Source: a virus (taxonomy: Duplodnaviria; Heunggongvirae; Uroviricota; Caudoviricetes). From it: a stretch of 38,311 bases of DNA. The notes below the pieces were generated by a model, which saw only the letters and a list, made by a program, of their open reading frames with translations, did no database searches and was not told the DNA's origin. Location: positions 1-38,311 of the IMG/VR virus record IMGVR_UViG_2534681700_000007. One strand, 5' to 3'. Positions within the stretch are counted from its first letter, which is position 1; each line of letters opens with the position of its first letter. Position numbers and translations under genes: made by a program. Of the stretch, positions 1-38,311 are shown piece after piece.

Positions 1-1236
1 CTACGATAACCGCGCATTCAACATGGCTATCTGTTCGTCGTTCATGTCATCAATCCACATACCGTAAATTTCATACACCATCTGCGCAGTTTCATGCCCC
101 ATTTGGCTGGCTATAAATGCCGGGTTCGCTCCTGCCGTCAACAGCCAGCAGGCAAAAGTATGCCGCGTATGGTACGGATTACGGCGGCGAATACCAGCAC
201 GTTTTACTGCTGCATTCCACCTTGCCCCCAAACTGCTTACCGAGTAATAAGGTTTTTGTTTTCCGTTACACACCCTGGGCATGAAAACAAAATGCAGTTT
301 TTGCTTTTCGGTTCTGCCGTACTCCCGATGATAAAAGGTGATTTCGCTTTTGCGATGATGCCCGGTCAGTTTGTATTGCTCCTTCAGTGCTTCAAGAGCA
401 GGCTGCAGTAGTGTTACTGTTCGGATCCCGGCATTTGTTTTTGGGGGACCGAACATATCAAGTATCGTCAGGTTTCTTCTGACATTCACTATTCCCTTTT
501 CGAGATCCACATCCTCCCACGCCAGAGCTGCCAGTTCCCCGTGACGAAGTCCTGAGTAAACGGCAAATTTCCACAAGTTCTGGCTCTGTCCTTTTTCACT
601 TTCCATTAATGCATTGAATTCTGTTTTAGATAACGGATCAGGCTTTATTCTGTTTCGCTGTAATTTTTTTACTCCTTCAAATGGTTTGGTTGATATAAAT
701 CCCGACTGATACGCAAAACGCAACAGCGAACAGAGCAGGGCGATATAGTTATCAACTGTGCGCACGGTTCTTCCTTTTTTGTTGGATCTTGGATTATCCA
801 GGTAAAGCGTTTCTCCATGCAGCAGTTCATTCCGGTAGTTTAAGATATCGCTATAACGAATATGTGATATCGGGGTACTTTCACAAATTATTATTCTGAG
901 TGTTTTTAATTGTGATTTCGTTTTCTTCATTGTGTTTGTTGTTAACTCTGTCTCTTTAATTTTTGTCCAGATATCACAAAGCTCTCCGAACGTTTTTATG
1001 ACTCTCGTTGTCACCATTTTTGCCCCAGTGCTGGACTGGGGAAAACGTCTTAAATACTCAAATTCACCGGAGTTTATTTCATGAACTATCAGCGCTCTTA
1101 AATTTCCGGCCTTTTTAATATTACTGTTTGTAATCTCCCAGCCTTTTAATGTTTCCCGACATCGTTTTCCTCGAAACATGAACCAGATGCGAATGTATCT
1201 ACCTCTAATCTCGACACCTGTTGGTAATTTAGACAT
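1..1236 (-). CDS. intR: Tyrosine-recombinase integrase (Rac-type), 411 aa; stop codon sits at window position 1-3
   Basis: Full ORF from the track; the translation beginning MSKLPTGVEIRGRYIRIWFMFRGKRCRETLKGW is recognised as Rac prophage integrase; the C-terminal part carries the R..HxxR..Y catalytic region typical of tyrosine recombinases. Confidence 0.9.
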   Translation of the reverse strand: MSKLPTGVEIRGRYIRIWFMFRGKRCRETLKGWEITNSNIKKAGNLRALIVHEINSGEFEYLRRFPQSSTGAKMVTTRVIKTFGELCDIWTKIKETELTTNTMKKTKSQLKTLRIIICESTPISHIRYSDILNYRNELLHGETLYLDNPRSNKKGRTVRTVDNYIALLCSLLRFAYQSGFISTKPFEGVKKLQRNRIKPDPLSKTEFNALMESEKGQSQNLWKFAVYSGLRHGELAALAWEDVDLEKGIVNVRRNLTILDMFGPPKTNAGIRTVTLLQPALEALKEQYKLTGHHRKSEITFYHREYGRTEKQKLHFVFMPRVCNGKQKPYYSVSSLGARWNAAVKRAGIRRRNPYHTRHTFACWLLTAGANPAFIASQMGHETAQMVYEIYGMWIDDMNDEQIAMLNARLS

Positions 1237-1237
1237 A

Positions 1238-1453
1238 TCATGAGTCTTTGATAAACTGATTTATCTTTGGATAGTTGTACCAGATAATCCCTCGTTTGCT
1301 GTCTGGCTTACCTAAAGGAGATACTCGTTTGAAGTGGAAGCCCTCCACCCAACAGTTCTGGCGGTATGCTTCAATTTGTCTGGCCCCCAGACCAGTGCGA
1401 AGCATCAGGCCGTATTCAACCATCCACTCTTCATTAAAGATTACTTGTGCCAT
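1238..1453 (-). CDS. xisR: Excisionase-like protein, 71 aa from internal Met [10 protein letters not shown]
   Basis: ORF 1238..1477 in the track; trimmed to the Met that gives the 71-aa YdaQ/XisR-like product; sits immediately upstream of int as in Rac. Confidence 0.7.
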
Positions 1454-1531
1454 CGCATCACCTCTGGCAGGCGCCAATGTTAGACTGAAATTGACGCCCG
1501 ATGTTGATTATTAATAATCAGCTATGAAGTT

Positions 1532-1741
1532 TTAATTTGAATACAATGCAATTCTCGAGGACTGAAGTTTCTCGCAATTAAAATTTATCAGTTTTACTTT
1601 CTGCTCTCTGGAAACGCCTGCTTCTTTTTTACCTGAGAGCATTTTTTCGCATTCTGATTTCGTTAGTTTAGATTTTGAATATCTTGTCCAGTTAGTAGGA
1701 GTGCCACCTTCCTTTTCAATAGTGGCGGTAATTTTATACAT
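1532..1741 (-). CDS. ydaC: Small Rac protein YdaC-like, 69 aa from MYKITATIEKEGG
   Basis: ORF 1532..1813; the internal start gives a 69-aa product and an 8-nt overlap with ralR; position between xis and ralR. Confidence 0.55.
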   Translation of the reverse strand: MYKITATIEKEGGTPTNWTRYSKSKLTKSECEKMLSGKKEAGVSREQKVKLINFNCEKLQSSRIALYSN

Positions 1742-1928
1742 GAACACCTCCATTATTATTTCCAGTGGTTCGTTTATTCCATCTTTCGAGTGCTTCTTTT
1801 TCACTTCCACCATAACCGGTTCGGGATTCGCATCCGTTACACTTCGCTCGGTAATATCCTGAAATGGCTTTCACCGTTACTGATGGACAACCACAAAATG
1901 GACATGGTTTAACATTGTCATATCTCAT
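1734..1928 (-). CDS. ralR: Restriction-alleviation protein (Lar/RalR), 64 aa
   Basis: Translation MRYDNVKPCPFCGCPSVTVKAISGYYRAKCNGCESRTGYGGSEKEALERWNKR with a CxxC...CxxC zinc-ribbon pattern, recognised as RalR; sits upstream of recT. Confidence 0.8.
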   Translation of the reverse strand: MRYDNVKPCPFCGCPSVTVKAISGYYRAKCNGCESRTGYGGSEKEALERWNKRTTGNNNGGVHV

Positions 1929-1984
1929 AATTTTTCTCATAAAAAATATTTCAAGTTGGCGGTGCATTACACCGCCAGGCTGAA

Positions 1985-2794
1985 TTATTCCTCTGAATTA
2001 TCGATTACACTGTATTCCCCGGTTAATACAGAGGAATCTGCAGGATCGATTGTCAGTGGTTCCTTTTCATCCATTGATACTGCACGCTGGATCTCAATTG
2101 ATACGGGCAAATATTTGAACAGGCGACGAATAGCCGTTTTCTTTGCCATTTCTTCCCAGTGAGTTACCCACGGCCCGTTATTACCAGCTTTACTCAGGCT
2201 GCGCACCAGCTCAATCTGTTTGCGCGTCATAACTTCAAACTGAGTACCTCCGTCTTTCAGTCTTGCGACAGCATAGACGTGGGTAACCGGGGCATCTTCG
2301 TTTTCTCCCGGGCGGTGTATTAACTTTTCATCAAGGCCAAATTCGAAGCTAAACTCGTCACCTTCACGGACAACACGGGCTGACAGGCTGGCGATTTGAC
2401 CAGAACGGCGAGCCAGATCAATCATGCCGCGATAGCCAATGATTAGCTGAACGTTCTTTTTACCGCTCTTTTCGTTTTTATTACCAAAAGGCAGTAAATA
2501 TGCATGACCGAGGGCGCTACCTGGCTCAAGTCCGAGCTGTGAACACTGTACGATCGCACTGACAAAACTCATAGTGTCACAGTTTCCTAACGCCGGAACT
2601 TTACGAATTTCTGTGGTGGCGATACGGATCATACGTTCAGCCGTCATATGGCGTGGAAGAGCTGCTGCCAGTTGCTCTTTCATTGATGGCTGGTTAATAA
2701 AACTAATCACGTCGCTATTTTTAACTGCTGCTGGTGCACGATTTCCCTGAGTTTTTTGCAGATCGGCTTTTGCGATTGGTGGTTGCTTAGTCAT
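1985..2794 (-). CDS. recT: Single-strand annealing recombinase RecT, 269 aa
   Basis: ORF 1985..2851 trimmed to [21 protein letters not shown] (the RecT N-terminus); its start overlaps the recE stop by 8 nt. Confidence 0.9.
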
Positions 2795-5387
2795 TTGCAT
2801 ATTCCTTAGCCCAGCGGGGCAGTGATAATGTCTTAATAGCTGGCCATTCATCGGTATTCAGGCAGTCAGACAGGGTTCGCAGATTGCGGTGATATTCCTG
2901 TTGACCTGCCAGTTTTGCTTCTTCGCCCATCATGAAAATTTCAACCGGATAACGTCCGCATTCAATAGTTGTGCTGGCAACCAGAAAAACGAAAGTTGGC
3001 TGCACTCCAAACTGTGCTTCATAACCGTCACTGTAGAATGCATCCTGAACGTGATAGCGGTAGTCGTAATAAGCGGTTTTGAATCGTTGAATATCCGCCG
3101 TAGTTTTCACGTCCATGATCCAGTGAAATTCAGGGATAATTTTGTCCGGACGGCACCGACACAAAATTCCTGTTTCAGGATCTTCCCAGTAAATTGATGA
3201 TTCAGCGTGTCCGGCGCTTTCAACAAGCCATTGCCCCAGCGGCAAAGCCATAACGCTTTGATACATGAGTTCAATTTTCCGGCCTTCTTCCGCAGTGATA
3301 ACCGTTTTTCCTGTGCTTGCGCATTCCATCAGAAACGCTTTCTCTTCTTCTTTTCCGGCGTTTGTACGGCGGTTAAATTCAGGTGCTACGATAAAGCGGT
3401 TACTGAATTCTTCCGGTTCAAGTACCCGGCAGTGGAAAGCAGTTCCTAAATCGAGCGTTTTTGTCTTTGTGGTGTCCACGGGGGCATTTTTACGCCACAA
3501 ATATAGTGCCGGAGTATCAGCAATGTCATCGAGCTGAGACTTACTGATACCGGGACCCGCGTGGTAATTCTCATTCGAAATTCCGTAATAAATACCTGGC
3601 TCTATGTCTTCTACGATTACGGGATCTGCGACTTCGCCAGTTTCATCACTGCAATCGCGATGCGGATCGCTGCCAGCATTCTCATTGTGCGGATGTTCAG
3701 CGCCTTCCATTTCCTCCGGATCATTTTCCTTAGCTTCAACCTGACTCTCTTCATCGAATGTTTCCTGGTATGTTGCGTCGCCCATCACCGCACCACAGTC
3801 AGGGCAGTTATCCCCGCCAGTCTGGCCGCAGGCATTGCAGGCTATTTCCGGTTCCTGTTGCACTACTGGCTCAGGTTGATTCATATCCGGGCTGGTTTTT
3901 TCCGTTTCTGGCTGGTTCTGGTACACACAATCGCGAGTCTGGATCCCCTTTACCCATTTCGGATCGTTCGGGTCGCTAATTCCGTCAACAAATTCATCAC
4001 GTGATGCAGCAAGCAATTTATCGGCATCGACAGGATTTTTTGATGGAATGTTTTTCCGGGCTTTATGGAGTTCTGCCCGCAGTTCCTGATATTTCGCATC
4101 AACAGAATTTACCTGTGACTGAGCATCCAGCGGCTGCGTGTCCTGATGATGTTCAGTTGCGTCCGGTTCCATTGTTTCAGCCTCTCCCTGTTCAACTGCC
4201 GTTGTTCCAGATGGTTGCGGTTTTTCTTCATCATCCTGTTTTCCTTCTTCTGTTACTCGCTGCGGCATCGGGGCAGAGGAGCGACCGCAGGCAATATCCA
4301 CGATTTCCGGATCAGGGTTGGCATGATCGGTTTCAGTCAGTACTTTGTTCAGATATTCAGTGACGTGCGCGGGGATGACCTCGATCCCAATTGGTGCTTC
4401 TTTTACGGACGCAACCACGATGGCGCGGGAATAATCCAGCCCGCCAGGCATGGTGATGAATTTGTCGCGGAAAACAGAAAAGGGCGGTTTATTTTCAGCG
4501 ATAATTTCCTCAATGCGTTTAGCGTGTGCCGGATGAAGGTTATAGATGTCCAGATCCATTGAACGGGCCAGTACGCCAGTGGCTACGTCGCGCGCCAGTG
4601 ACGTCAGATCGTGTACGAAACCTTCGCCGCGATCGGTGAGGTTTCCGCCGCCAGCATTAGCACCGGAAGCCGTGCGAGTGATGTGTGAAACACGATTACC
4701 CTTCATCCACTCTTTTGTCAGCAGTCCTCGATCGGTGTAGTCAGCGTTCAGGTATGCTTCGAAAAAAGCAGTTATCAGTCCCAGGTTTGAATTACCAGGA
4801 TTAGGGAAAACTTTGTCAGTGTCACGAACCAGTTTGTGGAGTTCGCGAATTTCCAGCGGGTCGAGCAGGCTGGTTTTGTGGGAAACAGCCAGGGCAGTAA
4901 CAGCCGGTAGTTCTTCAGCCCGAGCAATGTGTAATGCCTGGAGTCCGTCGCGTGAAACGTGCGTTACCGGTTTTTCGCTGCCGTGTTGAGCAAGCCAACG
5001 AATGGGCAGTTCCTGGCCAGAAATTGGGAGTAGCATATTCTCCTCAATCTCAGTCATGTCTTCGCCGTTGACGTTGGTATTGCCTTGATAGTGAGCGTTG
5101 TCTGGTGCTGCTCCCGGTTTTAGTTCCCATGTCATGGAGTCTTTGCTGAGTTGATAGCGTTCACTCCAGGTAAAATCGATCTCACCTTCAGCGGGCAGGT
5201 CATTAACGACAGGAAAATTCGTGGCAACAGCTTTAAAATAGCTGCTCAGTTTTTTACCTGACTTAACGATCAGGTAGTCCAGAGTGGCACAGGTCGATTC
5301 AAAATCGTTGCTTGCCCACAGGACGACGTCAGGTTCACCGGATGATTTTTTCGCTTTCCGTAACAGGAAGAGTGGTTTTGTGCTCAT
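2787..5387 (-). CDS. recE: Exodeoxyribonuclease VIII RecE, 866 aa
   Basis: 866-aa ORF immediately upstream of, and overlapping, recT; length and the C-terminal nuclease region match RecE of Rac. Confidence 0.9.
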
Positions 5388-5488
5388 TGTTTTTTAACCT
5401 CAACTCAGATTAAAATTCGTTTTGTTCAGTGAATGATCTTGCCGGATACACACTGTTCATAGCCTGCGCCATACGCAGGCTATTTCTT

Positions 5489-5764
5489 TCAGATTTCACC
5501 TTTTAATTTCATTGCAATTAGAGTTGCCAGAAATTCGGCTTTTTTTTCTGCGGGCAGATTCTTTCCGATATGCACCAGGCACATTTTTTTGACACCTTCA
5601 TCAAGTGTTTTTACGTTGCCTGATGGACCATCGATATCAACCACAGTGAATGGGGTTTCTTTATTTTCTGTTTTAATTACGTAGCCAATGCGCTTTCCTT
5701 CCAGATTCACCTCGTGAACAATGTCATCGGTAGTTACAACAGTGGCTTCATAATTGGTAATCAT
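5489..5764 (-). CDS. racC: RacC, 91 aa from MITNYEATVVTTDDIV
   Basis: ORF 5489..5812 trimmed to the internal Met; recognised as RacC. Confidence 0.75.
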   Translation of the reverse strand: MITNYEATVVTTDDIVHEVNLEGKRIGYVIKTENKETPFTVVDIDGPSGNVKTLDEGVKKMCLVHIGKNLPAEKKAEFLATLIAMKLKGEI

Positions 5765-5838
5765 GTTTTTCTCCTTAATTAAGGTTGAGCGAATACCTGC
5801 CATTTCTGGCATAAATTCAGTTTCGAATAGTCAATTAA

Positions 5839-6009
5839 TTAAAGTTCATGTGCCATCTGGTCTTTTTCGGCACAAGCTTCACTGCAATATTTTCTCGGTT
5901 CGTCTTTTGATAAAATCCCGTGCATGAAGTGAAGCATTCTTTCAATAGCTTTGCTTTCTTCAACGTCTTTTTTGCAAAGGTGGTAAGCACATTTTATTTT
6001 CTTAGTCAT
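5839..6009 (-). CDS. ydaE: Small Cys-rich protein YdaE-like, 56 aa ([56 protein letters not shown])
   Basis: Not in the ORF track (under 60 aa); translated by hand from the minus strand. Its start codon overlaps the kilR stop; four Cys in CxxxxC...CxxxC spacing. Confidence 0.55.
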   Translation of the reverse strand: MTKKIKCAYHLCKKDVEESKAIERMLHFMHGILSKDEPRKYCSEACAEKDQMAHEL

Positions 6010-6230
6010 CACCATGACTCCGCCTTTACAGGTAAACCATCACGACCGAGGAAGACTTTAATCATGCGGTCAGTAATGCATGTTTTTGTGGTCAGGTTAC
6101 GAATATATAGTTTTCGCTTTTTAATATTGTTTGCCGAGGCAATATATGTCCGGCCTTCATGAAGAACATAATCGCCAGGAGTCACACACTGACGTGGTAT
6201 TTCATCAGTTCCGAAGTGATGTGCAATCAT
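6009..6230 (-). CDS. kilR: Cell-division inhibitor KilR, 73 aa from [16 protein letters not shown]
   Basis: ORF 6009..6242 trimmed to the internal Met; recognised as KilR. Confidence 0.8.
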
Positions 6231-6671
6231 AATTATCTCCATTTTTACAAATGAACTTTGTTGATGCGGTGCCTGGTGCCTCCAGGTGACTGCAACCAGT
6301 TAACAATTACAGTCGGCTTTCCCACCCAAACCAATAAGGACTAACATGACTTTTAACTGTGCCACGTGCGCTTAGCCGCATTCACCGCATCACAAAATTC
6401 ACTTTAAAAAGGGCGGACATCAGCCGAACTTCAAGAAAAAAACTGATGCCGCCAGGACTACACACAGCAATGTCGTTATTTACAACCGGAGGCGCACTCC
6501 CACCATTTAAATTTAACAGACAAGACCGACTCTTTATGGATATCGGAAATGCGCCTTCGTGTTGTGCCCGGTTTTATTTCACCACCTCCGGGCTTCGGTG
6601 GTCTCGGCTATACCCCTACAGCGAGAGCTTGTGTTAACATTTCAATACCCTTACAGTTGAGAGTTATTGAT

Positions 6672-7160
6672 ATGTTGGATGTATTTACTCCATTGTTGAA
6701 ACTTTTTGCTAACGAGCCACTCGAAAGACTTATGTATACGATTATCATTTTTGGTCTCACTCTCTGGCTGATACCGAAAGAGTTTACTGTCGCATTCAAC
6801 GCTTATACTGAAATACCTTGGCTCTTTCAGATTATCGTTTTTGCCTTTTCTTTCGTGGTCGCCATTTCCTTCTCAAGATTGCGAGCACATATTCAAAAGC
6901 ATTATTCATTACTACCAGAGCAACGAGTATTGCTTCGTTTATCTGAGAAAGAAATCGCTGTATTTAAAGATTTCCTTAAAACAGGAAATCTTATTATCAC
7001 TTCTCCTTGCCGTAACCCGGTTATGAAAAAATTAGAACGGAAGGGCATCATTCAACATCAGAGTGATAGCGCAAACTGTTCTTATTATCTCGTCACCGAA
7101 AAATACTCCCATTTTATGAAGTTATTCTGGAACAGCAGGAGTAGACGTTTTAATCGTTAG
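6672..7160 (+). CDS. sieB: Superinfection exclusion protein SieB, 162 aa from MLDVFTPLLKLFANEP
   Basis: ORF 6549..7160 trimmed to the ATG at 6672; two predicted transmembrane helices near the N-terminus; recognised as SieB. Confidence 0.8.
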   Translation: MLDVFTPLLKLFANEPLERLMYTIIIFGLTLWLIPKEFTVAFNAYTEIPWLFQIIVFAFSFVVAISFSRLRAHIQKHYSLLPEQRVLLRLSEKEIAVFKDFLKTGNLIITSPCRNPVMKKLERKGIIQHQSDSANCSYYLVTEKYSHFMKLFWNSRSRRFNR

Positions 7161-7312
7161 CTTACTGTGTGCTTCTTCAACCATCGGCGCGCACCAGTTT
7201 CGGTTTTAAATGTTTTGCTTTTGGTATACGTCATGGCAGTGAACGTTCCATCCTGGTTGGGGAACACGCCGCACACCAGGGATTCGTTGTTGCCGAGGTC
7301 GATTTTTTGCAT
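7157..7312 (-). CDS. ydaF: Small protein YdaF-like, 51 aa (MQKIDLGNNESLVCGVFPNQDGTFTAMTYTKSKTFKTETGARRWLKKHTVS)
   Basis: Hand-translated small minus-strand ORF; its stop overlaps the sieB stop; position matches ydaF in Rac. Confidence 0.45.
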   Translation of the reverse strand: MQKIDLGNNESLVCGVFPNQDGTFTAMTYTKSKTFKTETGARRWLKKHTVS

Positions 7313-7322
7313 TTTGCGAATC

Positions 7323-7457
7323 TCACATCTTGTTGCTACGTATAGCGACTTCTGCCTGCCAGAGATCCCAGTCGTTGCTGCGTAAAGCCTGCACAGCCTG
7401 GTTGTAAGTGATACCGCAACAATCCATCAAATACTGAACTACTTCGTAATGCACCAT
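7323..7457 (-). CDS. ydaG: Small protein YdaG-like, 44 aa (MVHYEVVQYLMDCCGITYNQAVQALRSNDWDLWQAEVAIRSNKM)
   Basis: Hand-translated small minus-strand ORF directly downstream of the leftward promoter module at 7627-7655. Confidence 0.45.
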   Translation of the reverse strand: MVHYEVVQYLMDCCGITYNQAVQALRSNDWDLWQAEVAIRSNKM

Positions 7458-7626
7458 CTTATCTCTCCCCTTAACGCCGGGTGGCGGAACTAACTACTGC
7501 ACTGCAAAATTTGAATCCCGCCGTCATGTTCATACGCCTCGGGCTGGCTACTTAACCCCTTACCACTGCCTGGTAACTCGAAGTATTGCCCGGCGTTCTG
7601 TGGGGCGGGGTGGGTGGTATGCTGGA

Positions 7627-7672
7627 ACTATAGGTAATGCCTAATTGATTGTCAATAGGCTATGCCTAATGT
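7627..7672 (-). promoter_or_regulatory. Leftward (PL-like) promoter/operator module downstream of racR: minus-strand -35 TTGACA (7655..7650), 17-bp spacer, -10 TATAGT (7632..7627), with GCCTAAT/ATTAGGC repeats
   Basis: Read directly from the sequence. Its reverse complement (CATTAGGCATAGCCTATTGACAAT...) is nearly identical to the rightward module at 8291-8339. Confidence 0.45.
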
Positions 7673-7765
7673 TTTGAGCGTAACCTAATAGGTGATGGCG
7701 ACAGCAGAAAGTGATGGGGGGGTTAAATAACGGAATCCAGGAGTTTTCCGTCAGACCATATAAGT

Positions 7766-8242
7766 TTAAGTTCCAGTTTTTGTGATGTTCTGGCTTTTCC
7801 GTTCAGATTCTAGAGCTTTCAGATACTTACCCACTTTCATTTCCATCGCTGCTATATAGGCGCGAACATCGTGGTCAACCCAATCTGGTTCTGTAGCATT
7901 TCCAGATAACAGGAAAGCTACAATCGCTCTTATTTCATCAGAGGCTGCTTGATAAAGGTTGTTTATATCTAAAATTTCACTTTTTGTATCTGAATTGGTG
8001 GGGGTTGGTATGGGGTATTCGTTAAGCCCCCAATGCTCTGGACCAACAACATCAGAAAAGAAACGCCATAATTCTGGAAGTTTATCTTTACTTATAGAGC
8101 CTTTCTTAATCCAGTCATAAATTGATGGTGGTTGGACTTTGAAGTGGCGTGCGACCTCCGCCTTTGATTTGACGGATCCCGATGCGATTTTTTTGTTAAT
8201 GGCCTGCTCTATCGCTCGGCCTAAGTCTTTACCACTAAGCAT
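7766..8242 (-). CDS. racR: Prophage repressor RacR, 158 aa
   Basis: ORF in the track; N-terminal helix-turn-helix region (QPPSIYDWIKKGS); recognised as RacR; divergent from ydaS. Confidence 0.85.
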   Translation of the reverse strand: MLSGKDLGRAIEQAINKKIASGSVKSKAEVARHFKVQPPSIYDWIKKGSISKDKLPELWRFFSDVVGPEHWGLNEYPIPTPTNSDTKSEILDINNLYQAASDEIRAIVAFLLSGNATEPDWVDHDVRAYIAAMEMKVGKYLKALESERKSQNITKTGT

Positions 8243-8290
8243 TGCTTAATATTCTCCTATGCGCATTACATTAGGCAATCCCTACCCTTA

Positions 8291-8339
8291 CCGCATTAGG
8301 CACAGCCTATTGACAATTGCGTTAGGCGTCGCCTAATAT
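8291..8339 (+). promoter_or_regulatory. Rightward (PR-like) promoter/operator for ydaS: -35 TTGACA at 8310..8315, perfect 15-bp palindrome TTAGGCGTCGCCTAA at 8322..8336 across the spacer and -10
   Basis: Read directly from the sequence; the palindrome position is typical of a repressor operator overlapping the promoter. Confidence 0.45.
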
Positions 8340-8365
8340 TTCTGTGTGTTTTTGGAGTTCATTCG

Positions 8366-29659: not shown

Positions 29660-29714
29660 CCTTACCCTTCATCACTAAAGGCCGCCTGTGCGGCTTTTTT
29701 TACGGGATTTTTTT

Positions 29715-30740
29715 ATGTCGATGTACACAACCGCCCAGCTGCTGGCGGCAAATGAGAAGAAATTTAAGTTTGATCCGCTGTTTCTGCGTCTCTTTTTCCG
29801 TGAGAGCTATCCCTTCACCACGGAGAAAGTCTATCTCTCACAAATTCCGGGACTGGTAAACATGGCGCTGTACGTTTCGCCGATTGTTTCCGGTGAGGTT
29901 ATCCGCTCCCGTGGCGGCTCCACCTCTGAATTTACACCGGGATATGTCAAGCCGAAGCATGAGGTGAATCCGCAGATGACCCTGCGTCGCCTGCCGGATG
30001 AAGATCCACAGAATCTGGCGGACCCGGCTTACCGCCGCCGTCGCATCATCCTGCAGAACATGCGAGACGAAGAGCTGGCCATTGCTCAGGTCGAAGAGAT
30101 GCAGGCCGTTTCTGCCGTGCTTAAGGGCAAATATACCATGACCGGTGAAGCCTTCGATCCGGTTGAAGTGGATATGGGCCGCAGTGTGGCGAACAACATC
30201 ACGCAGTCCGGCGGTACGGAGTGGAGCAAGCGTGACAAGTCCACGTATGACCCGACCGACGATATCGAAGCCTACGCGCTGAACGCCAGCGGTGTGGTGA
30301 ATATCATCGTGTTTGATCCGAAAGGCTGGGCGCTGTTCCGTTCCTTCAAAGCCGTCAAGGAGAAGCTGGATACCCGTCGCGGCTCTAATTCCGAGCTGGA
30401 GACAGCGGTAAAAGACCTGGGCGAAGCGGTGTCCTATAAGGGGATGTATGGCGATACGGCGATCGTCGTGTATTCCGGACAGTACGTGGAAAACGACGTC
30501 AAAAAGAACTTCCTGCCGGACAACACGATGGTGCTGGGGAACACTCAGGCACGCGGTCTGCGCACCTATGGCTGCATTCAGGATGCGGACGCACAGCGCG
30601 AAGGTATTAACGCCTCTGCCCGCTACCCGAAAAACTGGGTGACTACCGGCGATCCGGCGCGTGAGTTCACCATGATTCAGTCAGCACCGCTGATGCTGCT
30701 GGCTGACCCTGATGCGTTCGTGTCCGTACAACTGGCGTAA
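29715..30740 (+). CDS. E: Major capsid protein E, 341 aa
   Basis: ORF 29688..30740 trimmed to MSMYTTAQLLAANEKKFKFDPLFLRLFFRESYPF, the lambda gpE N-terminus. Confidence 0.95.
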   Translation: MSMYTTAQLLAANEKKFKFDPLFLRLFFRESYPFTTEKVYLSQIPGLVNMALYVSPIVSGEVIRSRGGSTSEFTPGYVKPKHEVNPQMTLRRLPDEDPQNLADPAYRRRRIILQNMRDEELAIAQVEEMQAVSAVLKGKYTMTGEAFDPVEVDMGRSVANNITQSGGTEWSKRDKSTYDPTDDIEAYALNASGVVNIIVFDPKGWALFRSFKAVKEKLDTRRGSNSELETAVKDLGEAVSYKGMYGDTAIVVYSGQYVENDVKKNFLPDNTMVLGNTQARGLRTYGCIQDADAQREGINASARYPKNWVTTGDPAREFTMIQSAPLMLLADPDAFVSVQLA

Positions 30741-30781
30741 TCATGGCCCTTCGGGGCCATTTTCTCTCTGTGGAGGAGTCC

Positions 30782-31177
30782 ATGACGAAAGATGAACTGA
30801 TTGCCCGTCTTCAGGTGCTGGGTGAGCAACTGAACCGTGATGTCAGCCTGACGGGGACGAAAGAAGAACTGGCACTCCGTGTGGCAGAGCTGGAAGAGGA
30901 GCTTGATGACACGGATGACGCTGCTGGTCAGGACACATCTGTCAGCCCGGAAAATGCGCTGACCGGACATGAAAATGAGGTTGTATCAGCGCAGCCGGAT
31001 ACCGTGACTGATACGGCTGATCTGGTCACGGTTGTGGCACTGGTGACGCTGCATACTGATGCACTTCACGCCACGCGGGATGAGGCTGTGGCATTTGTGC
31101 TGCCGGGAACGGCGTTCCGTGTCTCTGCCGGTGTGGCAGCTGAAATGACAGAGCGCGGCCTGGCCAGAATGCAATAA
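30782..31177 (+). CDS. FI: DNA-packaging protein FI, 131 aa
   Basis: ORF 30743..31177 trimmed to MTKDELIARLQ...; matches lambda gpFI with a variable middle segment. Confidence 0.9.
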   Translation: MTKDELIARLQVLGEQLNRDVSLTGTKEELALRVAELEEELDDTDDAAGQDTSVSPENALTGHENEVVSAQPDTVTDTADLVTVVALVTLHTDALHATRDEAVAFVLPGTAFRVSAGVAAEMTERGLARMQ

Positions 31178-31188
31178 CGGGAGGCGCT

Positions 31189-31542
31189 GTGGCTGATTTC
31201 GATAACCTGTTCGATGCTGCCATTGTTCGCGCCGATGAAACGATACGCGGGTACATGGGAACGTCAGCCACCATGACATCCGGTGAGCAGTCCGGCGCAG
31301 TAATACGTGGTGTTTTTGATGACCCTGAAAATATCAGCTATGCCGGACAGGGCGTGCGCGTTGAAGGCTCCAGCCCGTCCCTGTTTGTCCGGACTGATGA
31401 TGTGCGGCAGCTGCGGCGTGGAGACACGCTGACCATCGGTGAGGAAAACTTCTGGATAGACCGGGTTTCGCCGGATGATGGTGGAAGCTGTCATCTCTGG
31501 CTTGGGCGGGGCGTACCGCCTGCCGTTAACCGTCGCCGCTGA
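31189..31542 (+). CDS. FII: Head-tail connector FII, 117 aa
   Basis: Translation MADFDNLFDAAIVRADETIRGYMGTSATMTSGEQSGAVIRGVFDDPENISYAGQG... matches lambda gpFII. Confidence 0.95.
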   Translation: MADFDNLFDAAIVRADETIRGYMGTSATMTSGEQSGAVIRGVFDDPENISYAGQGVRVEGSSPSLFVRTDDVRQLRRGDTLTIGEENFWIDRVSPDDGGSCHLWLGRGVPPAVNRRR

Positions 31543-31553
31543 AAGGGGGATGT

Positions 31554-32132
31554 ATGGCCATAAAAGGTCTTGAGCAGGCCATTGAAAACCTCAGCCGTAT
31601 CAGCAAAACGGCGGTGCCTGGTGCCGCCGCAATGGCCATTAACCGCGTTGCTTCATCCGCGATATCGCAGTCGGCGTCACAGGTTGCCCGTGAGACAAAG
31701 GTACGCCGGAAACTGGTAAAGGAAAGGGCCAGGCTGAAAAGGGCCACGGTCAAAAATCCGCAGGCCAGAATCAAAGTTAACCGGGGGGATTTGCCCGTAA
31801 TCAAGCTGGGTAATGCGCGGGTTGTCCTTTCGCGCCGCAGGCGTCGTAAAAAGGGGCAGCGTTCATCCCTGAAAGGTGGCGGCAGCGTGCTTGTGGTGGG
31901 TAACCGTCGTATTCCCGGCGCGTTTATTCAGCAACTGAAAAATGGCCGGTGGCATGTCATGCAGCGTGTGGCCGGGAAAAACCGTTACCCCATTGATGTG
32001 GTGAAAATCCCGATGGCGGTGCCGCTGACCACGGCGTTTAAACAAAATATTGAGCGGATACGGCGTGAACGTCTTCCGAAAGAGCTGGGCTATGCGCTGC
32101 AGCATCAACTGAGGATGGTAATAAAGCGATGA
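31554..32132 (+). CDS. Z: Tail completion protein Z, 192 aa
   Basis: ORF in the track; matches lambda gpZ. Confidence 0.95.
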   Translation: MAIKGLEQAIENLSRISKTAVPGAAAMAINRVASSAISQSASQVARETKVRRKLVKERARLKRATVKNPQARIKVNRGDLPVIKLGNARVVLSRRRRRKKGQRSSLKGGGSVLVVGNRRIPGAFIQQLKNGRWHVMQRVAGKNRYPIDVVKIPMAVPLTTAFKQNIERIRRERLPKELGYALQHQLRMVIKR

Positions 32133-32524
32133 AACATACTGAACTCCGTGCAGCCGTACTGGATGCACTGGAGAAGCATGACACCGGGGCGACGTTTTTT
32201 GATGGTCGCCCCGCTGTTTTTGATGAGGCGGATTTTCCGGCAGTTGCCGTTTATCTCACCGGCGCTGAATACACGGGCGAAGAGCTGGACAGCGATACCT
32301 GGCAGGCGGAGCTGCATATCGAAGTTTTCCTGCCTGCTCAGGTGCCGGATTCAGAGCTGGATGCGTGGATGGAGTCCCGGATTTATCCGGTGATGAGCGA
32401 TATCCCGGCACTGTCAGATTTGATCACCAGTATGGTGGCCAGCGGCTATGACTACCGGCGCGACGATGATGCGGGCCTGTGGAGTTCAGCCGATCTGACT
32501 TATGTCATTACCTATGAAATGTGA
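32129..32524 (+). CDS. U: Tail terminator protein U, 131 aa
   Basis: ORF in the track; matches lambda gpU. Confidence 0.95.
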
Positions 32525-32531
32525 GGACGCT

Positions 32532-33272
32532 ATGCCTGTACCAAATCCTACAATGCCGGTGAAAGGTGCCGGGACCACCCTGTGGGTTTATAAGGGGAGC
32601 GGTGACCCTTATGCGAATCCGCTTTCAGACGTTGACTGGTCGCGTCTGGCAAAAGTTAAAGACCTGACGCCCGGCGAACTGACCGCTGAGTCCTATGACG
32701 ACAGCTATCTCGATGATGAAGATGCAGACTGGACTGCGACCGGGCAGGGGCAGAAATCTGCCGGAGATACCAGCTTCACGCTGGCGTGGATACCCGGAGA
32801 GCAGGGGCAGCAGGCGCTGCTGGCGTGGTTTAATGAAGGCGATACCCGTGCCTATAAAATCCGCTTCCCGAACGGCACGGTCGATGTGTTCCGTGGCTGG
32901 GTCAGCAGTATCGGTAAGGCGGTGACGGCGAAGGAAGTGATCACCCGCACGGTGAAAGTCACCAATGTGGGACGTCCGTCGATGGCAGAAGATCGCAGCA
33001 CGGTAACAGCGGCAACCGGCATGACCGTGACGCCTGCCAGCACCTCGGTGGTGAAAGGGCAGAGCACCACGCTGACCGTGGCCTTCCAGCCGGAGGGCGT
33101 AACCGACAAGAGCTTTCGTGCGGTGTCTGCGGATAAAACAAAAGCCACCGTGTCGGTCAGTGGTATGACCATCACCGTGAACGGCGTTGCTGCAGGCAAG
33201 GTCAACATTCCGGTTGTATCCGGTAATGGTGAGTTTGCTGCGGTTGCAGAAATTACCGTCACCGCCAGTTAA
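32532..33272 (+). CDS. V: Major tail tube protein V, 246 aa
   Basis: ORF 32502..33272 trimmed to [22 protein letters not shown], the lambda gpV N-terminus; C-terminal Ig-like domain present. Confidence 0.95.
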
Positions 33273-33287
33273 TCCGGAGAGTCAGCG

Positions 33288-33710
33288 ATGTTCCTGAAAA
33301 CCGAATCATTTGAACATAACGGTGTGACCGTCACGCTTTCTGAACTGTCAGCCCTGCAGCGCATTGAGCATCTCGCCCTGATGAAACGGCAGGCAGAACA
33401 GGCGGAGTCAGACAGCAACCGGAAGTTTACTGTGGAAGACGCCATCAGAACCGGTGCTTTTGTGGTAGCGATGTCCCTGTGGCATAACCATCCGCAGAAG
33501 ACAAAGCAGCCTTCCATGAATGAAGCCGTTAAACAGATTGAGCAGGAAGTGCTTACCACCTGGCCTACAGAGGCAATTTCTCATGCTGAAAACGTGGTGT
33601 ACCGGCTGTCCGGTATGTATGAGTTTGTGGTGAATGATGCCCCTGAACAGGCAGAGGACGCCGGGCCTGCAGAGCCTGTTTCTGCGGGAAAGTGTTCGAC
33701 GGTGAGCTGA
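33288..33710 (+). CDS. G: Tail assembly chaperone G, 140 aa
   Basis: ORF in the track; matches lambda gpG; contains the slippery heptamer near its 3' end. Confidence 0.95.
   Translation: MFLKTESFEHNGVTVTLSELSALQRIEHLALMKRQAEQAESDSNRKFTVEDAIRTGAFVVAMSLWHNHPQKTKQPSMNEAVKQIEQEVLTTWPTEAISHAENVVYRLSGMYEFVVNDAPEQAEDAGPAEPVSAGKCSTVS
33686..33692 (+). other. Programmed -1 ribosomal frameshift site G GGA AAG producing the G-T fusion
   Basis: The heptamer is in the G frame (GGA at 33687, AAG at 33690); the T frame (33692..34126) lies in the -1 frame and has no independent start context. Confidence 0.85.
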
Positions 33711-34126
33711 CTTTTGCCCTGAAACTGGCGCGCGAGATGGGGCGACCCGACTGGCGTGCCATGCTTGCCGGGATGTCATCCACGGAGTATGCCGACTGGC
33801 ACCGCTTTTACAGTACCCATTATTTTCATGATGTTCTGCTGGATATGCACTTTTCCGGGCTGACGTACACCGTGCTCAGCCTGTTTTTCAGCGATCCGGA
33901 TATGCATCCGCTGGATTTCAGTCTGCTGAACCGGCGTGAGGCTGACGAAGAGCCTGAAGATGATGTGCTGATGCAGAAAGCGGCAGGGCTTGCCGGAGGC
34001 GTTCGTTTTGGCCCGGACGGGAATGAAGTTATCCCCGCTTCCCCGGATGTGGCGGACATGACGGAGGATGATGTAATGCTGATGACAGTATCAGAAGGGA
34101 TCGCAGGAGGAGTCCGGTATGGCTGA
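33692..34126 (+). CDS. T: Tail assembly protein T reading frame, expressed only as the G-T fusion
   Basis: ORF 33692..34126 in the -1 frame relative to G, overlapping the G 3' end; matches lambda gpT. Confidence 0.85.
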   Translation: MFDGELTFALKLAREMGRPDWRAMLAGMSSTEYADWHRFYSTHYFHDVLLDMHFSGLTYTVLSLFFSDPDMHPLDFSLLNRREADEEPEDDVLMQKAAGLAGGVRFGPDGNEVIPASPDVADMTEDDVMLMTVSEGIAGGVRYG

Positions 34127-36680
34127 ACCGGTAGGCGATCTGGTCGTTGATTTAAGTCTGGATGCGGCCAGATTTGACGAGCAGATGGCCAGAGTCAGGC
34201 GTCATTTTTCCGGTACGGAAAGTGATGCGAAAAAAACAGCGGCAGTCGTTGAACAGTCGATGAGCCGGCAGGCGCTGGCTGCACAGAAAGCGGGGATTTC
34301 CGTCGGGCAGTATAAAGCCGCCATGCGTATGCTGCCTGCGCAGTTCACCGACGTGGCCACGCAGCTTGCAGGCGGGCAGAGTCCGTGGCTGATCCTGCTG
34401 CAACAGGGGGGTCAGGTTAAGGACTCCTTCGGCGGGATGATCCCCATGTTCAGGGGGCTTGCCGGTGCGATCACCCTGCCGATGGTGGGGGCCACCTCGC
34501 TGGCGGTGGCGACCGGTGCGCTGGCGTATGCCTGGTATCAGGGCAACTCAACCCTGTCCGATTTCAACAAAACGCTGGTCCTTTCCGGCAATCAGGCGGG
34601 ACTGACGGCAGATCGTATGCTGGTCCTGTCCAGAGCCGGGCAGGCGGCAGGGCTGACGTTTAACCAGACCAGCGAGTCACTGACGGCGCTGGTGAATGCC
34701 GGTGTGCGTGGTGGTGAGCAGTTTGAGGCGATCAGCCAGAGTGTGGCGCGTTTCTCCTCTGCATCCGGCGTGGAGGTGGACAAGGTCGCTGAAGCCTTCG
34801 GGAAGCTGACCACAGACCCGACGTCGGGACTGACAGCGATGGCACGTCAGTTCCATAACGTGACGGCGGAGCAGATTGCGTATGTTGCTCAGTTGCAGCG
34901 TTCCGGCGATGAAGCCGGGGCATTGCAGGCGGCGAACGAGGCCGCAACGAAAGGGTTTGATGACCAGACCCGCCGCCTGAAAGAGAACATGGGCACGCTG
35001 GAGACCTGGGCAGACAGGACAGCGCGGGCATTCAAATCCATGTGGGATGCGGTGCTGGATATTGGTCGTCCTGATACCGCGCAGGAGATGTTGATTAAGG
35101 CAGAGGCTGCGTTTAAGAAAGCAGACGACATCTGGAATCTGCGCAAGGATGATTATTTTGTTAACGATGAAGCGCGGGCGCGTTACTGGGATGATCGTGA
35201 AAAGGCCCGTCTTGCGCTTGAAGCCGCCCGAAAGAAGGCTGAGCAGCAGAGTCAACAGGACAAAAATGCGCAGCAGCAGAGCGATACCGAAGCGTCACGG
35301 CTGAAATATACCGAAGAGGCACAGAAGGCTTACGAACGCCTGCAGACACCGCTGGAGAAATATACCGCCCGTCAGGAGGAACTGAATAAGGCACTGAAAG
35401 ACGGGAAAATCCTGCAGGCAGATTACAACACGCTGATGGCGGCGGCGAAAAAGGATTATGAAGCGACGCTGAAAAAGCCGAAACAGTCCGGCGTGAAGGT
35501 GTCTGCGGGCGATCGTCAGGAAGACAGTGCTCATGCTGCCCTGCTGACGCTTCAGGCTGAACTCCGGACGCTGGAGAAGCATGCCGGAGCAAATGAGAAA
35601 ATCAGCCAGCAGCGCCGGGATTTGTGGAAGGCGGAGAGTCAGTTCGCGGTACTGGAGGAGGCGGCGCAACGTCGCCAGCTGTCTGCACAGGAGAAATCCC
35701 TGCTGGCGCATAAAGATGATACGCTGGAGTACAAACGCCAGCTGGCTGCACTTGGCGACAAGGTTACGTATCAGGAGCGCCTGAACGCGCTGGCGCAGCA
35801 GGCGGATAAATTCGCACAGCAGCAACGGGCAAAACGGGCCGCCATTGATGCGAAAAGCCGGGGGCTGACTGACCGGCAGGCAGAACGGGAAGCCACAGAA
35901 CAGCGCCTGAAGGAACAGTATGGCGATAATCCGCTGGCGCTGAATAACGTCATGTCAGAGCAGAAAAAGACCTGGGCGGCTGAAGACCAGCTTCGCGGGA
36001 GCTGGATGGCAGGCCTGAAGTCCGGCTGGAGTGAGTGGGAAGAGAGCGCCACGGACAGTATGTCGCAGGTTAAAAGTGCAGCCACGCAGACCTTTGATGG
36101 TATTGCACAGAATATGGCGGCGATGCTGACCGGCAGTGAGCAGAACTGGCGCAGCTTTACCCGTTCCGTGCTGTCCATGATGACAGAAATTCTGCTTAAG
36201 CAGGCAATGGTGGGGATTGTCGGGAGTATCGGCAGCGCCATTGGCGGGGCTGTTGGTGGCGGCGCATCAGCGTCAGGCGGTACAGCCATTCAGGCAGCTG
36301 CTGCGAAATTCCATTTTGCGACCGGGGGATTTACGGGAACCGGCGGCAAATATGAGCCAGCGGGGATTGTTCACCGTGGTGAATTTGTCTTCACGAAGGA
36401 GGCAACCAGCCGGATTGGCGTGGGGAATCTCTACCGGCTGATGCGCGGCTATGCCACCGGTGGTTATGTCGGTACACCGGGCAGTCTGGCTGACAGCCGG
36501 TCGCAGGCGTCCGGGACGTTTGAGCAGAATAACCATGTGGTGATTAACAACGACGGCACGAACGGGCAGATAGGTCCGGCTGCTCTGAAGACGGTGTATG
36601 ACATGGCCCGCAAGGGTGCCCGTGATGAAATTCAGACACAGATGCGTGATGGTGGCCTGTTCTCCGGAGGTGGACGATGA
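34119..36680 (+). CDS. H: Tail tape-measure protein H, 853 aa
   Basis: ORF in the track; matches lambda gpH in length and sequence. Confidence 0.95.
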   Translation: MAEPVGDLVVDLSLDAARFDEQMARVRRHFSGTESDAKKTAAVVEQSMSRQALAAQKAGISVGQYKAAMRMLPAQFTDVATQLAGGQSPWLILLQQGGQVKDSFGGMIPMFRGLAGAITLPMVGATSLAVATGALAYAWYQGNSTLSDFNKTLVLSGNQAGLTADRMLVLSRAGQAAGLTFNQTSESLTALVNAGVRGGEQFEAISQSVARFSSASGVEVDKVAEAFGKLTTDPTSGLTAMARQFHNVTAEQIAYVAQLQRSGDEAGALQAANEAATKGFDDQTRRLKENMGTLETWADRTARAFKSMWDAVLDIGRPDTAQEMLIKAEAAFKKADDIWNLRKDDYFVNDEARARYWDDREKARLALEAARKKAEQQSQQDKNAQQQSDTEASRLKYTEEAQKAYERLQTPLEKYTARQEELNKALKDGKILQADYNTLMAAAKKDYEATLKKPKQSGVKVSAGDRQEDSAHAALLTLQAELRTLEKHAGANEKISQQRRDLWKAESQFAVLEEAAQRRQLSAQEKSLLAHKDDTLEYKRQLAALGDKVTYQERLNALAQQADKFAQQQRAKRAAIDAKSRGLTDRQAEREATEQRLKEQYGDNPLALNNVMSEQKKTWAAEDQLRGSWMAGLKSGWSEWEESATDSMSQVKSAATQTFDGIAQNMAAMLTGSEQNWRSFTRSVLSMMTEILLKQAMVGIVGSIGSAIGGAVGGGASASGGTAIQAAAAKFHFATGGFTGTGGKYEPAGIVHRGEFVFTKEATSRIGVGNLYRLMRGYATGGYVGTPGSLADSRSQASGTFEQNNHVVINNDGTNGQIGPAALKTVYDMARKGARDEIQTQMRDGGLFSGGGR

Positions 36681-37006
36681 AAACCTTCCGCTGGAAAGTG
36701 AAACCCGGTATGGATGTGGCTTCGGCCCCTTCTGTAAGAAAGGTGCGCTTTGGTGATGGCTATTCCCAGCGAGCGCCTGCCGGGCTGAATGCCAACCTGA
36801 AAACGTACAGCGTGACGCTTTCTGTCCCCCGTGAGGAGGCCACGGTACTGGAGTCGTTTCTGGAAGAGCACGGGGGCTGGAAAGCCTTTCTGTGGACACC
36901 GCCTTATGAGTGGCGGCAGATAAAGGTGACCTGCGCAAAATGGTCGTCGCGGGTCAGTATGCTGCGTGTTGAGTTCAGCGCAGAGTTTGAACAGGTGGTG
37001 AACTGA
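36677..37006 (+). CDS. M: Tail tip protein M, 109 aa
   Basis: ORF in the track; matches lambda gpM. Confidence 0.95.
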   Translation: MKTFRWKVKPGMDVASAPSVRKVRFGDGYSQRAPAGLNANLKTYSVTLSVPREEATVLESFLEEHGGWKAFLWTPPYEWRQIKVTCAKWSSRVSMLRVEFSAEFEQVVN

Positions 37007-37704
37007 TGCAGGATATCCGGCAGGAAACACTGAATGAATGCACCCGTGCGGAGCAGTCGGCCAGCGTGGTGCTATGGGAAATCGACCTGACAGAGGTCGG
37101 TGGAGAACGTTATTTTTTCTGTAATGAGCAGAACGAAAAAGGTGAGCCGGTCACCTGGCAGGGGCGACAGTATCAGGCGTATCCCATTCAGGGGAGTGGT
37201 TTTGAACTGAATGGCAAGGGCAGTGCTGCCCGTCCGACACTGACGGTTTCTAACCTGCACGGCATGGTCACCGGGATGGCGGAAGACCTGCAGAGTCTGG
37301 TCGGCGGAACGGTGGTCAGGCGTAAGGTTTACGCCCGTTTTCTGGATGCGGTGAACTTCGTCAACGGAAACAGTGACGCCGATCCGGAGCAGGAGGTGAT
37401 CAGCCGCTGGCGCATTGAGCAGTGCAGCGAACTGAGCGCGGTGAGTGCCTCTTTTGTACTGTCCACGCCGACGGAAACGGACGGCGCTGTTTTTCCGGGA
37501 CGTATCATGCTGGCCAACACCTGCACCTGGACCTATCGCGGTGATGAGTGCGGTTATCACGGTCCGGCTGTCGCGGATGAATATGACCAGCCGACGTCCG
37601 ATATCACGAAGGATAAATGCAGCAAATGCCTGAGTGGCTGTAAGTTTCGCAATAACGTCTGCAACTTTGGCGGCTTCCTTTCCATTAACAAACTTTCGCA
37701 GTAA
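37006..37704 (+). CDS. L: Tail tip protein L, 232 aa
   Basis: ORF in the track; matches lambda gpL; the Cys cluster near the C-terminus is conserved. Confidence 0.95.
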   Translation: MQDIRQETLNECTRAEQSASVVLWEIDLTEVGGERYFFCNEQNEKGEPVTWQGRQYQAYPIQGSGFELNGKGSAARPTLTVSNLHGMVTGMAEDLQSLVGGTVVRRKVYARFLDAVNFVNGNSDADPEQEVISRWRIEQCSELSAVSASFVLSTPTETDGAVFPGRIMLANTCTWTYRGDECGYHGPAVADEYDQPTSDITKDKCSKCLSGCKFRNNVCNFGGFLSINKLSQ

Positions 37705-37708
37705 TCCC

Positions 37709-38311
37709 ATGACAGAGACAGAATCAGCGATTCTGGCGCACGCCCGGCGATGTGCGCCAGCGGAGTCGTGCGGCTTCGTGGTGAGAACGCCGGAGGGGGA
37801 AAGATATTTTCCCTGCGTGAATATCTCCGGTGAGCCGGAGGATTATTTCCGGATGGCTCCGGAGGACTGGCTGCAGGCAGAAATGCAGGGTGAGATTGTG
37901 GCGCTGGTCCACAGTCATCCCGGTGGTCTGCCCTGGCTGAGTGATGCTGATCGGCGGCTGCAGGTGCAGAGTGATTTGCCGTGGTGGCTGGTCTGCCGGG
38001 GGGCGATTCATAAGTTCCGCTGTGTGCCGCATCTCACCGGGCGGCGCTTTGAGCACGGGTCGACGGACTGTTACACGCTGTTCCGGGATGCTTATCATCT
38101 GGCGGGGATTGAGATGCCGGATTTTCATCGCGGGTATGACTGGTGGCGTAACGGTCAGAATCTCTATCTTGACAATATGGAGGCAACGGGTTTTTACCGT
38201 GTCGCACTGACAGAGGCGCAGCCGGGCGATGTGCTGCTGTGCTGTTTTGGTTCATCGGTGCCGAATCATGCCGCCATTTACTGTGGTGATGGCGAGCTGC
38301 TGCACCATATT
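37709..38311 (+). CDS. K: Tail tip assembly protein K (JAMM/MPN plus NlpC/P60-type), 3' end truncated by the window; the conventional start is the in-frame ATG at 37853, with an open in-frame extension back to the ATG at 37709
   Basis: Frame is open from 37709 to the window end (not in the ORF track because no stop is reached). HSHPGGLPWLSDAD matches the JAMM HxHx7Sx2D motif; the 48-codon upstream extension contains a conserved-looking Glu (PAESCGFVV). Confidence 0.8.
   Translation, partial: MTETESAILAHARRCAPAESCGFVVRTPEGERYFPCVNISGEPEDYFRMAPEDWLQAEMQGEIVALVHSHPGGLPWLSDADRRLQVQSDLPWWLVCRGAIHKFRCVPHLTGRRFEHGSTDCYTLFRDAYHLAGIEMPDFHRGYDWWRNGQNLYLDNMEATGFYRVALTEAQPGDVLLCCFGSSVPNHAAIYCGDGELLHHI

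Follow-up and report, generated by a model that had tools for sequence, protein, structure and literature searches.

A Rac-family left arm meeting a lambda-type late arm in an Escherichia coli prophage contig: two known parental blocks and a join that is probably chimeric

The 38,311-nucleotide (nt) stretch analysed here (IMG/VR record IMGVR_UViG_2534681700_000007, positions 1 to 38,311; hereafter the window) carries early genes of the Escherichia coli Rac prophage, lysis genes of the phage 21 type, and packaging, head and tail genes of the lambda type, raising the question of how many parents contributed to it and whether they were joined in a cell or in an assembly. A first-pass annotation had read the element as a three-way mosaic with module boundaries at AT-rich cargo tracts. 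The present analysis points instead to an ordinary E. coli lambdoid prophage of a kind already known and composed of two known parts: on the left a full-length arm of the Rac family, and on the right a lambda-type arm for packaging, head and tail. The parental blocks are two, not three: the Rac left arm extends from position 1 to ~21.9 kb, and a late arm of the type found in strain AR_452 continues rightward. Their join was probably created during assembly, as a chimera.

The layout was derived from the open reading frame (ORF) listing, Pfam, Rfam, and comparison with annotated genomes, and the gene order across the window was that of a standard lambdoid phage; no tRNA genes were found within the 38.3-kb window. 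For identity, K-12 Rac, lambda (NC_001416), and phage 21 (OL657228) were used as named references in blastn and 500-bp sliding comparisons, which returned a module-wise pattern rather than uniform divergence, in agreement with the first-pass annotation. The main blocks are as follows.

1 to 11202, both strands: Rac early region, a single blastn high-scoring segment pair against K-12 Rac at 99.47% identity, with genes named after the K-12 annotation
11203 to 22058, plus strand: segment without a counterpart in K-12 Rac, present in full-length Rac-family prophages of other strains
19816 to 22493, plus strand: block of ~2.7 kb common to Rac-type and Qin-locus lambda-like prophages, with which both the CFSAN061771 Rac prophage and the AR_452 prophage align
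21875 to 22083, plus strand: interval in which Rac-type gives way to AR_452-type sequence; the two parents are identical over its 209 bp, which comprise the 3' end of rrrD and the first part of Rz
23171 to 23770, plus strand: lambda-type cos region, with 95.2% identity to the joined right and left ends of lambda
23771 to 38311, plus strand: lambda-type morphogenesis genes nu1, A, W, B, C/nu3, D, E, FI, FII, Z, U, V, G, T, H, M, L, and K (first 201 codons)

The match to K-12 Rac breaks at 11202 and resumes at 22059–22493 (92%), and the break is the endpoint of a deletion in K-12, so that the apparent Rac/cargo boundary at ~11.2–11.9 kb is a property of the reference and not of the element in the window. 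Relative to the window, the K-12 deletion (NC_000913.3, ~1423201) amounts to 10,856 bp, or 8,750 bp without the two insertion sequence (IS) elements, and its joint, marked by a TA microhomology, joins the DUF1627 gene (ydaW) and rzpR, a remnant of Rz, in one fusion. Since window segment 11203–22058 was lost there, K-12 Rac is without the 21-type lysis cassette. The Rac prophage of strain CFSAN061771 (NZ_CP042896.1, at ttcA) matched window positions 1–7619, 8679–12108, 12876–15842, and 17179–22493 at 98.5–99.9% identity and was collinear over 1–22493 except for the immunity region 7620–8678 and the two IS elements, sharing the same NACHT cargo gene, hokD, the DUF1367/DUF1364/DUF1133 module, the TolA morons, and an essD/rrrD-type lysis cassette. 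Furthermore, the Rac prophages of CFSAN061771 and 23AR1101 differed from the window at only 4–5 positions over 18046–22083, with 100% identity to both over 18501–19500. It follows that the Q module, the TolA morons, and the lysis cassette of the 21 type are native to the Rac family. As a reference for this family K-12 Rac serves poorly, with ~10.9 kb missing, including the family's Q module and 21-type lysis cassette, and its use as the reference leads to false module boundaries and to the three-way reading.

Rightward, window 19816–38311 matched the prophage of AR_452 (NZ_CP030331.1), located at the Qin site between rspB and ydfJ, at 99.3% identity. There were 16 differing sites within 21213–21874, zero mismatches over 21875–36433 (Rz, iss/bor, ylcI, cos, and nu1 to M), and one mismatch over 22084–37202, with divergence again from 37203 (L and K). 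To the left the AR_452 prophage is different: its arm is of the Qin/DicB type and includes tRNA genes, and its integrase, immunity region, and Q are not those of the window. As the last AR_452-type mismatch lies at 21874 and the first Rac-type mismatch at 22084, the switch falls inside the 209-bp identical stretch. Relatedness changes a second time from 37203, in L, and the last 1.1 kb (37203–38311, L and K) drops to ~95% identity to each of AR_452, lambda, and phage 21. The exact L protein was found on one contig only in the whole gene collection, namely the source contig, which suggests consensus mixing near the contig end, so that 37203–38311 may be a consensus mix of several prophage copies.

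In the canonical full-length Rac prophage, Rz is followed by trkG, a ParB-like gene, TAGT genes, Terminase_2/Terminase_6 genes, a DUF4055 portal gene, and Mu-F-like head genes, whereas the window lacks this late arm and Rz leads to bor, cos, and nu1 instead. The canonical arm was present in CFSAN061771, in the sibling contigs AQAY and AQBE described below, and in 10 of the 10 listed places of the exact RrrD protein, all leading to trkG.

The window is 100% identical to draft contig AQEZ01000012.1 (GCA_000355275.2), at positions ~40413–78723 of 78,724 bp, and its right edge falls inside K, 1 nt short of where the contig stops. The 50-aa stub and 710-aa ORF created by IS1 in its cargo gene were confined to a few draft assemblies from around 2013, and nine sibling contigs from these were compared with the window. 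In all nine, IS1 was inserted as in the window and an IS186 occupied the position it has there, the transposase being split in at least eight of them; their exits from the lysis block diverged. The lambda exit (Rz-bor-nu1-A) was taken by AQBC, AQBF, and AQBB, as by the source AQEZ, and the canonical Rac exit (Rz-trkG-ParB) by AQAY and AQBE; the other four stopped inside or at the edge of the shared lysis block, three of them 1–13 bp before a discriminating single-nucleotide polymorphism (SNP), at 20260 (SNP 20272), 22071 (22084), and 22428 (22429). Moreover, the siblings differed at 17 sites within 20272–21874, where the variant base was the AR_452 allele at nearly all (exceptions: 20684 and 20877, isolated T/G). 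This pattern of AR_452 alleles was patchy and different in each assembly, and AQBG flipped type again inside Rz. Counted by hand, the allele switches numbered ~25 under the canonical and ~24 under the hybrid hypothesis, a count that does not discriminate.

Both lysis-block copies and both exit arms coexist in sibling genomes of the source lineage. The patchwork alleles and divergent exits are the marks of two co-resident repeat copies left unphased by the assembler, and the pairing of arms in any one contig is untrustworthy. Isolated differences among siblings, mostly T/G, were also seen at 16619, 17249, 18423, 18955, 19300, 20684, and 20877; these scattered T/G differences look like base-calling or consensus errors, and draft quality is modest. 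A literature search found no mention of the whole-genome shotgun accessions of the draft assemblies.

Considering that the source lineage holds two lysis-block copies and that the siblings give inconsistent joins, the Rac/lambda join is doubtful, and the assembled short-read contigs favor, with some confidence, a wrong join in this contig. A short-read assembler would have walked from the Rac copy to the other copy across the 209-bp identical stretch. Several observations weigh against a chimera. Four of the six repeat-crossing assemblies take the lambda arm, and AQEZ, AQBC, and AQBF share a clean single switch at 21875–22083, as a real crossover would look. In addition, the trkG-arm contigs were seen from siblings AQAY and AQBE and none from the AQEZ assembly itself, and finished genomes contain genuine Rac-locus prophages with lambda-type late genes, namely A21 (attL at ttcA, attR at uspF) and a remnant in 23AR1101.

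A survey of 5426 complete E. coli genomes covered these arrangements. Of them, 727 have the canonical lysis-Rz-trkG junction, 823 the lambda-type lysis-Rz-iss-nohD junction, and 440 the Rac Q module. Of these 440, just two link the module to lambda nu1/A: A21, and 23AR1101, where the element is a deleted remnant. None of the 5426 held at least 80% of window 11000–26000 or of 17191–26000. The rspB-ydfJ site of CFSAN061771, whose Rac prophage is the closest relative in a finished genome, was empty, with no Qin-site lambda-like prophage, and is uninformative on co-residence.

A real join is a tentative alternative, less probable than the chimera. A resident Rac-family prophage would have recombined homologously within the shared lysis cassette (21875–22083) with an AR_452-type lambda prophage or an infecting phage, either by replacement of the Rac late arm at the ttcA/uspF locus or by an inversion of the chromosome between the prophages at the Rac and Qin sites, which flank the terminus in opposite orientations; the inversion would give two reciprocal hybrids. 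The single switch common to the window, AQBC, and AQBF, the 4:2 division of assemblies toward the lambda arm, and the natural precedents at the Rac locus (A21, intact, and 23AR1101, a remnant) are consistent with such an event, as are the open late ORFs from nu1 to L, the intact cosN, and the retained G-T slippery site. Experiments have, moreover, shown lambda and defective prophages to exchange DNA frequently across R-Rz-cos-nu1-A (PMC3945230). Nevertheless, siblings of the same lineage give the trkG join too, together with the allele patchwork, indicating that the repeat was not reliably resolved; the linkage is very rare in finished genomes (2 of ~440 Q-module carriers); and the perfect 14.5-kb match to a Qin-site prophage and the co-resident second lysis-block copy are also expected from a chimeric path.

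The second of these routes, a reciprocal Rac-site/Qin-site exchange by inversion across the shared 21-type lysis cassette, appears improbable when taken by itself. Prophage-mediated inversions are documented in E. coli (PMC6379469), and an inversion polymorphic among the sibling isolates would, if true, explain both joins in the assemblies.

The originally proposed origin, a joining of distinct Rac, phage 21, and lambda modules at AT-rich cargo tracts, is very unlikely. Judged against the three named references alone, identity is indeed module-wise (K-12 Rac over 1–11202, phage 21 over 21291–23116, and lambda from 22039 onward), but full-length Rac prophages at ttcA hold the 21-type cassette contiguously at ~99.9%, so that there is no Rac/21 junction and two parental blocks suffice. 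Module boundaries at AT-rich tracts were not borne out: 11202 is the K-12 deletion endpoint, and the sole mapped switch falls within lysis genes that are conserved. In addition, Rz, Rz1, and bor stand as close to phage 21 as to lambda. Derivation from the K-12-derived lambda reverse (lambda-rev) was rejected because the window holds 10.9 kb of DNA that is missing from K-12 Rac, and 59 sites differ from K-12.

Although a chimeric path is the preferred explanation, the genome that a real join would imply can be outlined. It would be lambdoid and ~48 kb long, taking immunity, replication, and Q functions from Rac and cos, terminase, head, and tail from lambda, with lysis of the 21 type. RacR would hold repression, IntR and XisR would excise the element, and YdaU and YdaV would drive replication, after which the DUF1133 Q-like protein would act at a candidate promoter/terminator at 19430–19512. 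Pinholin, SAR endolysin, and spanins would then lyse the cell, and the lambda terminase would cut the lambda-type cos; packaging specificity would be self-consistent because cos, nu1, and A come from the same block. IS1 and IS186 separate the replication genes from the Q-like gene and could exert polar effects on late expression. Such a genome would carry little biological weight, given that lambdoid mosaicism through shared late-region homology is textbook knowledge and has been measured experimentally (PMC3945230), and that the finished A21 genome already shows a Rac-locus prophage with lambda-type late genes. Of wider relevance, prophage "mosaics" from short-read draft contigs can be chimeric paths through repeats of co-resident prophages, and they warrant comparison with sibling assemblies or long reads before interpretation.

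Within the left arm, the early region comprises the following features.

1 to 1236, minus strand: intR
1238 to 1453, minus strand: xisR
1532 to 1741, minus strand: rcbA
1557 to 1735, plus strand: ralA small RNA (Rfam RalA match, 225 bits)
1734 to 1928, minus strand: ralR
1985 to 2794, minus strand: recT
2787 to 5387, minus strand: recE, followed on the same strand by racC, ydaE, kilR, ydaF, and ydaG
6672 to 7160, plus strand: sieB
7766 to 8242, minus strand: racR
8366 to 8662, plus strand: ydaS
8685 to 9107, plus strand: ydaT
9120 to 9977, plus strand: ydaU
9984 to 10730, plus strand: ydaV
Right edge of the K-12-matching block, plus strand: 5' part of the DUF1627 gene (ydaW)

The leftward set thus runs from intR to racR, with sieB among its genes on the opposite strand, and the rightward early set from ydaS through ydaV to the DUF1627 gene and a DUF977 remnant. 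The Rac gene order from int through ydaV, claimed in the first-pass annotation, was borne out, and the family order rcbA-ralR/ralA-recT-recE-racC-ydaE-kilR-sieB-ydaF-ydaG-racR-ydaS-ydaT-ydaU-ydaV is kept collinear. The intR and xisR genes are 100% identical to those of K-12, and attL and ttcA would fall before position 1; among the identical-RecE matches listed, ttcA adjoins intR in 10 of 10 contigs. The immunity region 7620–8678 (racR/ydaS) is of the K-12 type in the window, and the Rac prophages of CFSAN061771 and A21, near-identical elsewhere, have a different helix-turn-helix pair there; this interval is a separate small module swap.

Between the early region and the lysis block lie the cargo, the IS elements, and the late-regulation module.

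11961 to 14995, plus strand: NACHT-domain STAND NTPase cargo gene (Pfam NACHT and NCH1; 32% GC)
12110 to 12877: IS1, 768 bp, 99.0% identical to K-12 IS1A (Pfam DDE_Tnp_IS1)
15496 to 15819, plus strand: hokD/mokD-sok type I toxin-antitoxin locus (Rfam sok, 92 bits, at 15496–15669; hokD annotated at the equivalent place in CFSAN061771)
15842 to 17179, minus strand: IS186, 1338 bp, 99.85% identical to K-12 IS186A, with one gap
17631 to 18230, plus strand: DUF1367 gene of the Rac-type late-regulation module (Pfam)
18230 to 18520, plus strand: YbcO/DUF1364 gene of the same module (Pfam)
18517 to 19059, plus strand: DUF1133 Q-like antiterminator gene of the same module (Pfam)
19430 to 19512, plus strand: candidate late promoter AAGACA-18-TATAAT, then a strong hairpin and T-run terminator ~30 nt downstream (consensus scan)

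IS1 splits the NACHT gene into a 50-aa N-terminal stub and a 710-aa remainder, and an intact 752-aa gene exists in CFSAN061771; the copy in the window is, judging from its sequence, inactivated. The IS1 ends, read directly from the sequence, show a target duplication of 8–9 bp, (C)TGATTTTG. PADLOC returned P-loop-level matches only and no specific model for the NACHT protein, and an exact-pattern scan of GTDB species representatives gave no match to the IS1/NACHT joint. The slot between the DUF977 gene and hokD (window 11848–15221) is a variable cargo site across Rac-family prophages, often with defence-like content; alternative cargo there includes GmrSD plus a TPR protein, BCCT/DUF2254, an AAA ATPase plus S8 peptidase, SIR2, methylases (one with AAA_15), and a GAPS4-like nuclease.

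IS186 prefers targets of the form GGGG-N6-CCCC. The target here is GGGGAGAAATCCCC (GGGG-N6-CCCC), with a 10-bp duplication, GGAGAAATCC, and ends likewise read directly; the transposase is frameshifted by a 1-bp deletion in a C run. IS186 also adjoins DUF1367 in the Rac prophage of CP024141.1. The prediction that AT-rich cargo tracts hold the IS elements, hok, and a lipoprotein moron was right as to content, since IS1, IS186, hokD/sok, and two lipobox ORFs are all present and the NACHT cargo is AT-rich, but IS186 and hok lie outside 11.9–15 kb. Downstream of the DUF1133 gene, in a Q-specific region, 19430–19512 is a putative pR'/tR'-like pair; phage 21 has an annotated late promoter directly followed by a terminator, as in this candidate arrangement.

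The lysis block contains the following features.

19807 to 19993: STnc100-like RNA (Rfam, 86.6 bits)
20104 to 20532 and 20683 to 21078: two adjacent lipobox ORFs (IIGC and VAGC) with TolA C-terminal domains, upstream of the holin
21330 to 21545, plus strand: phage-21-type pinholin, 71 aa, 90.1% aa identity to S21 along the whole length and 21.5% to lambda S
21545 to 22042, plus strand: SAR endolysin, 165 aa, 98.2% aa identity to R21 and 22.4% to lambda R (Pfam Phage_lysozyme on a sibling contig)
22039 to 22500, plus strand: Rz
22259 to 22441, plus strand: Rz1
22532 to 22825, minus strand: bor/iss lipoprotein gene

The shared block accordingly holds the STnc100-like RNA, two lipoprotein morons with TolA C-terminal domains, holin, SAR endolysin, and Rz/Rz1. 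The start of the STnc100-like RNA nearly coincides with the onset of AR_452 similarity (19816), the left edge of the shared late block, and TolA-C lipoprotein ORFs are widespread in E. coli lambdoid prophages. The holin begins MKSMDK, a dual start (Met1 and Met4) of the class II 68/71-aa type, with Pfam Phage_holin_2_1 on the identical sibling gene, and the endolysin retains a Gly/Ala-rich N-terminal segment and E35, D44, and T50 unchanged relative to R21, so that the pinholin/SAR-endolysin assignment to the phage 21 type holds; lambda S and R are unrelated to this pair. Phage 21 matched the window over 21291–23116 (S, R, Rz, Rz1, and bor) at 95.1% nt identity, and neither lambda nor phage 21 showed similarity to the window left of 21291.

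That the sequence is nearly lambda from Rz onward was correct for cosN and for nu1 to K, but not for Rz, Rz1, and bor, whose aa identities to lambda and phage 21 are 98.0/96.7%, 98.3/100%, and 91.8/99.0%, respectively. Lambda matched by blastn over 22039–22879 (94.2%), 23171–23581 (95.1%), and 23582–38311, corresponding to lambda 1–14734 (97.5%). This identity is interrupted at 22880–23170, where 291 bp replace lambda 46810–48091, the bor-cos interval. After bor (minus strand) follow a ylcI-type ORF, cos, nu1 through L, and the first 201 codons of K; the ylcI/DUF3950 ORF lies at 23188–23382 on the minus strand, and phage 21 similarity stops at 23116. The cosN sequence GGGCGGCGACCT at 23582–23593 is identical to that of lambda, as are its flanks save one mismatch at 23565. 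Genes nu1 to L stand in lambda order with all ORFs open, and the G-T slippery heptamer GGGAAAG is kept at 33685; the contig stops at codon 201 of K, and genes I and J and those for the tail fibres fall beyond the window. Nu1 and A show 98.3% and 99.5% aa identity to lambda, the proteins from Nu1 to FII 96.6–99.5% (FI 87.9%) as against only 27–65% to the phage 21 head proteins, and the tail proteins 96–100% to lambda. At the nt level, phage 21 matches the tail genes (31414–38311) at 95.5% and the head genes at only 65–69%.

Among known systems, the A21 prophage (NZ_CP028754.1) resembles the window in its order ttcA-intR...recET...ydaU/V...DUF1367/1364/1133-essD-rrrD-rzpD-iss-ylcI-nohD, followed by lambda-type A to J and attR at uspF. 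It differs in that identity is only ~90–99%, the immunity region and cargo (queH, sitABCD) are other ones, tRNA genes follow Q, TolA morons are absent, and frameshifts are annotated in V and G. A further parallel is offered by lambda-rev, the laboratory recombinants of lambda with K-12 Rac, in which Rac early functions including recET became joined to lambda morphogenesis through shared late-region homology. The likeness of lambda-rev, which is mentioned in PMC3945230, to the window is one of concept only, namely Rac early functions linked to lambda morphogenesis.

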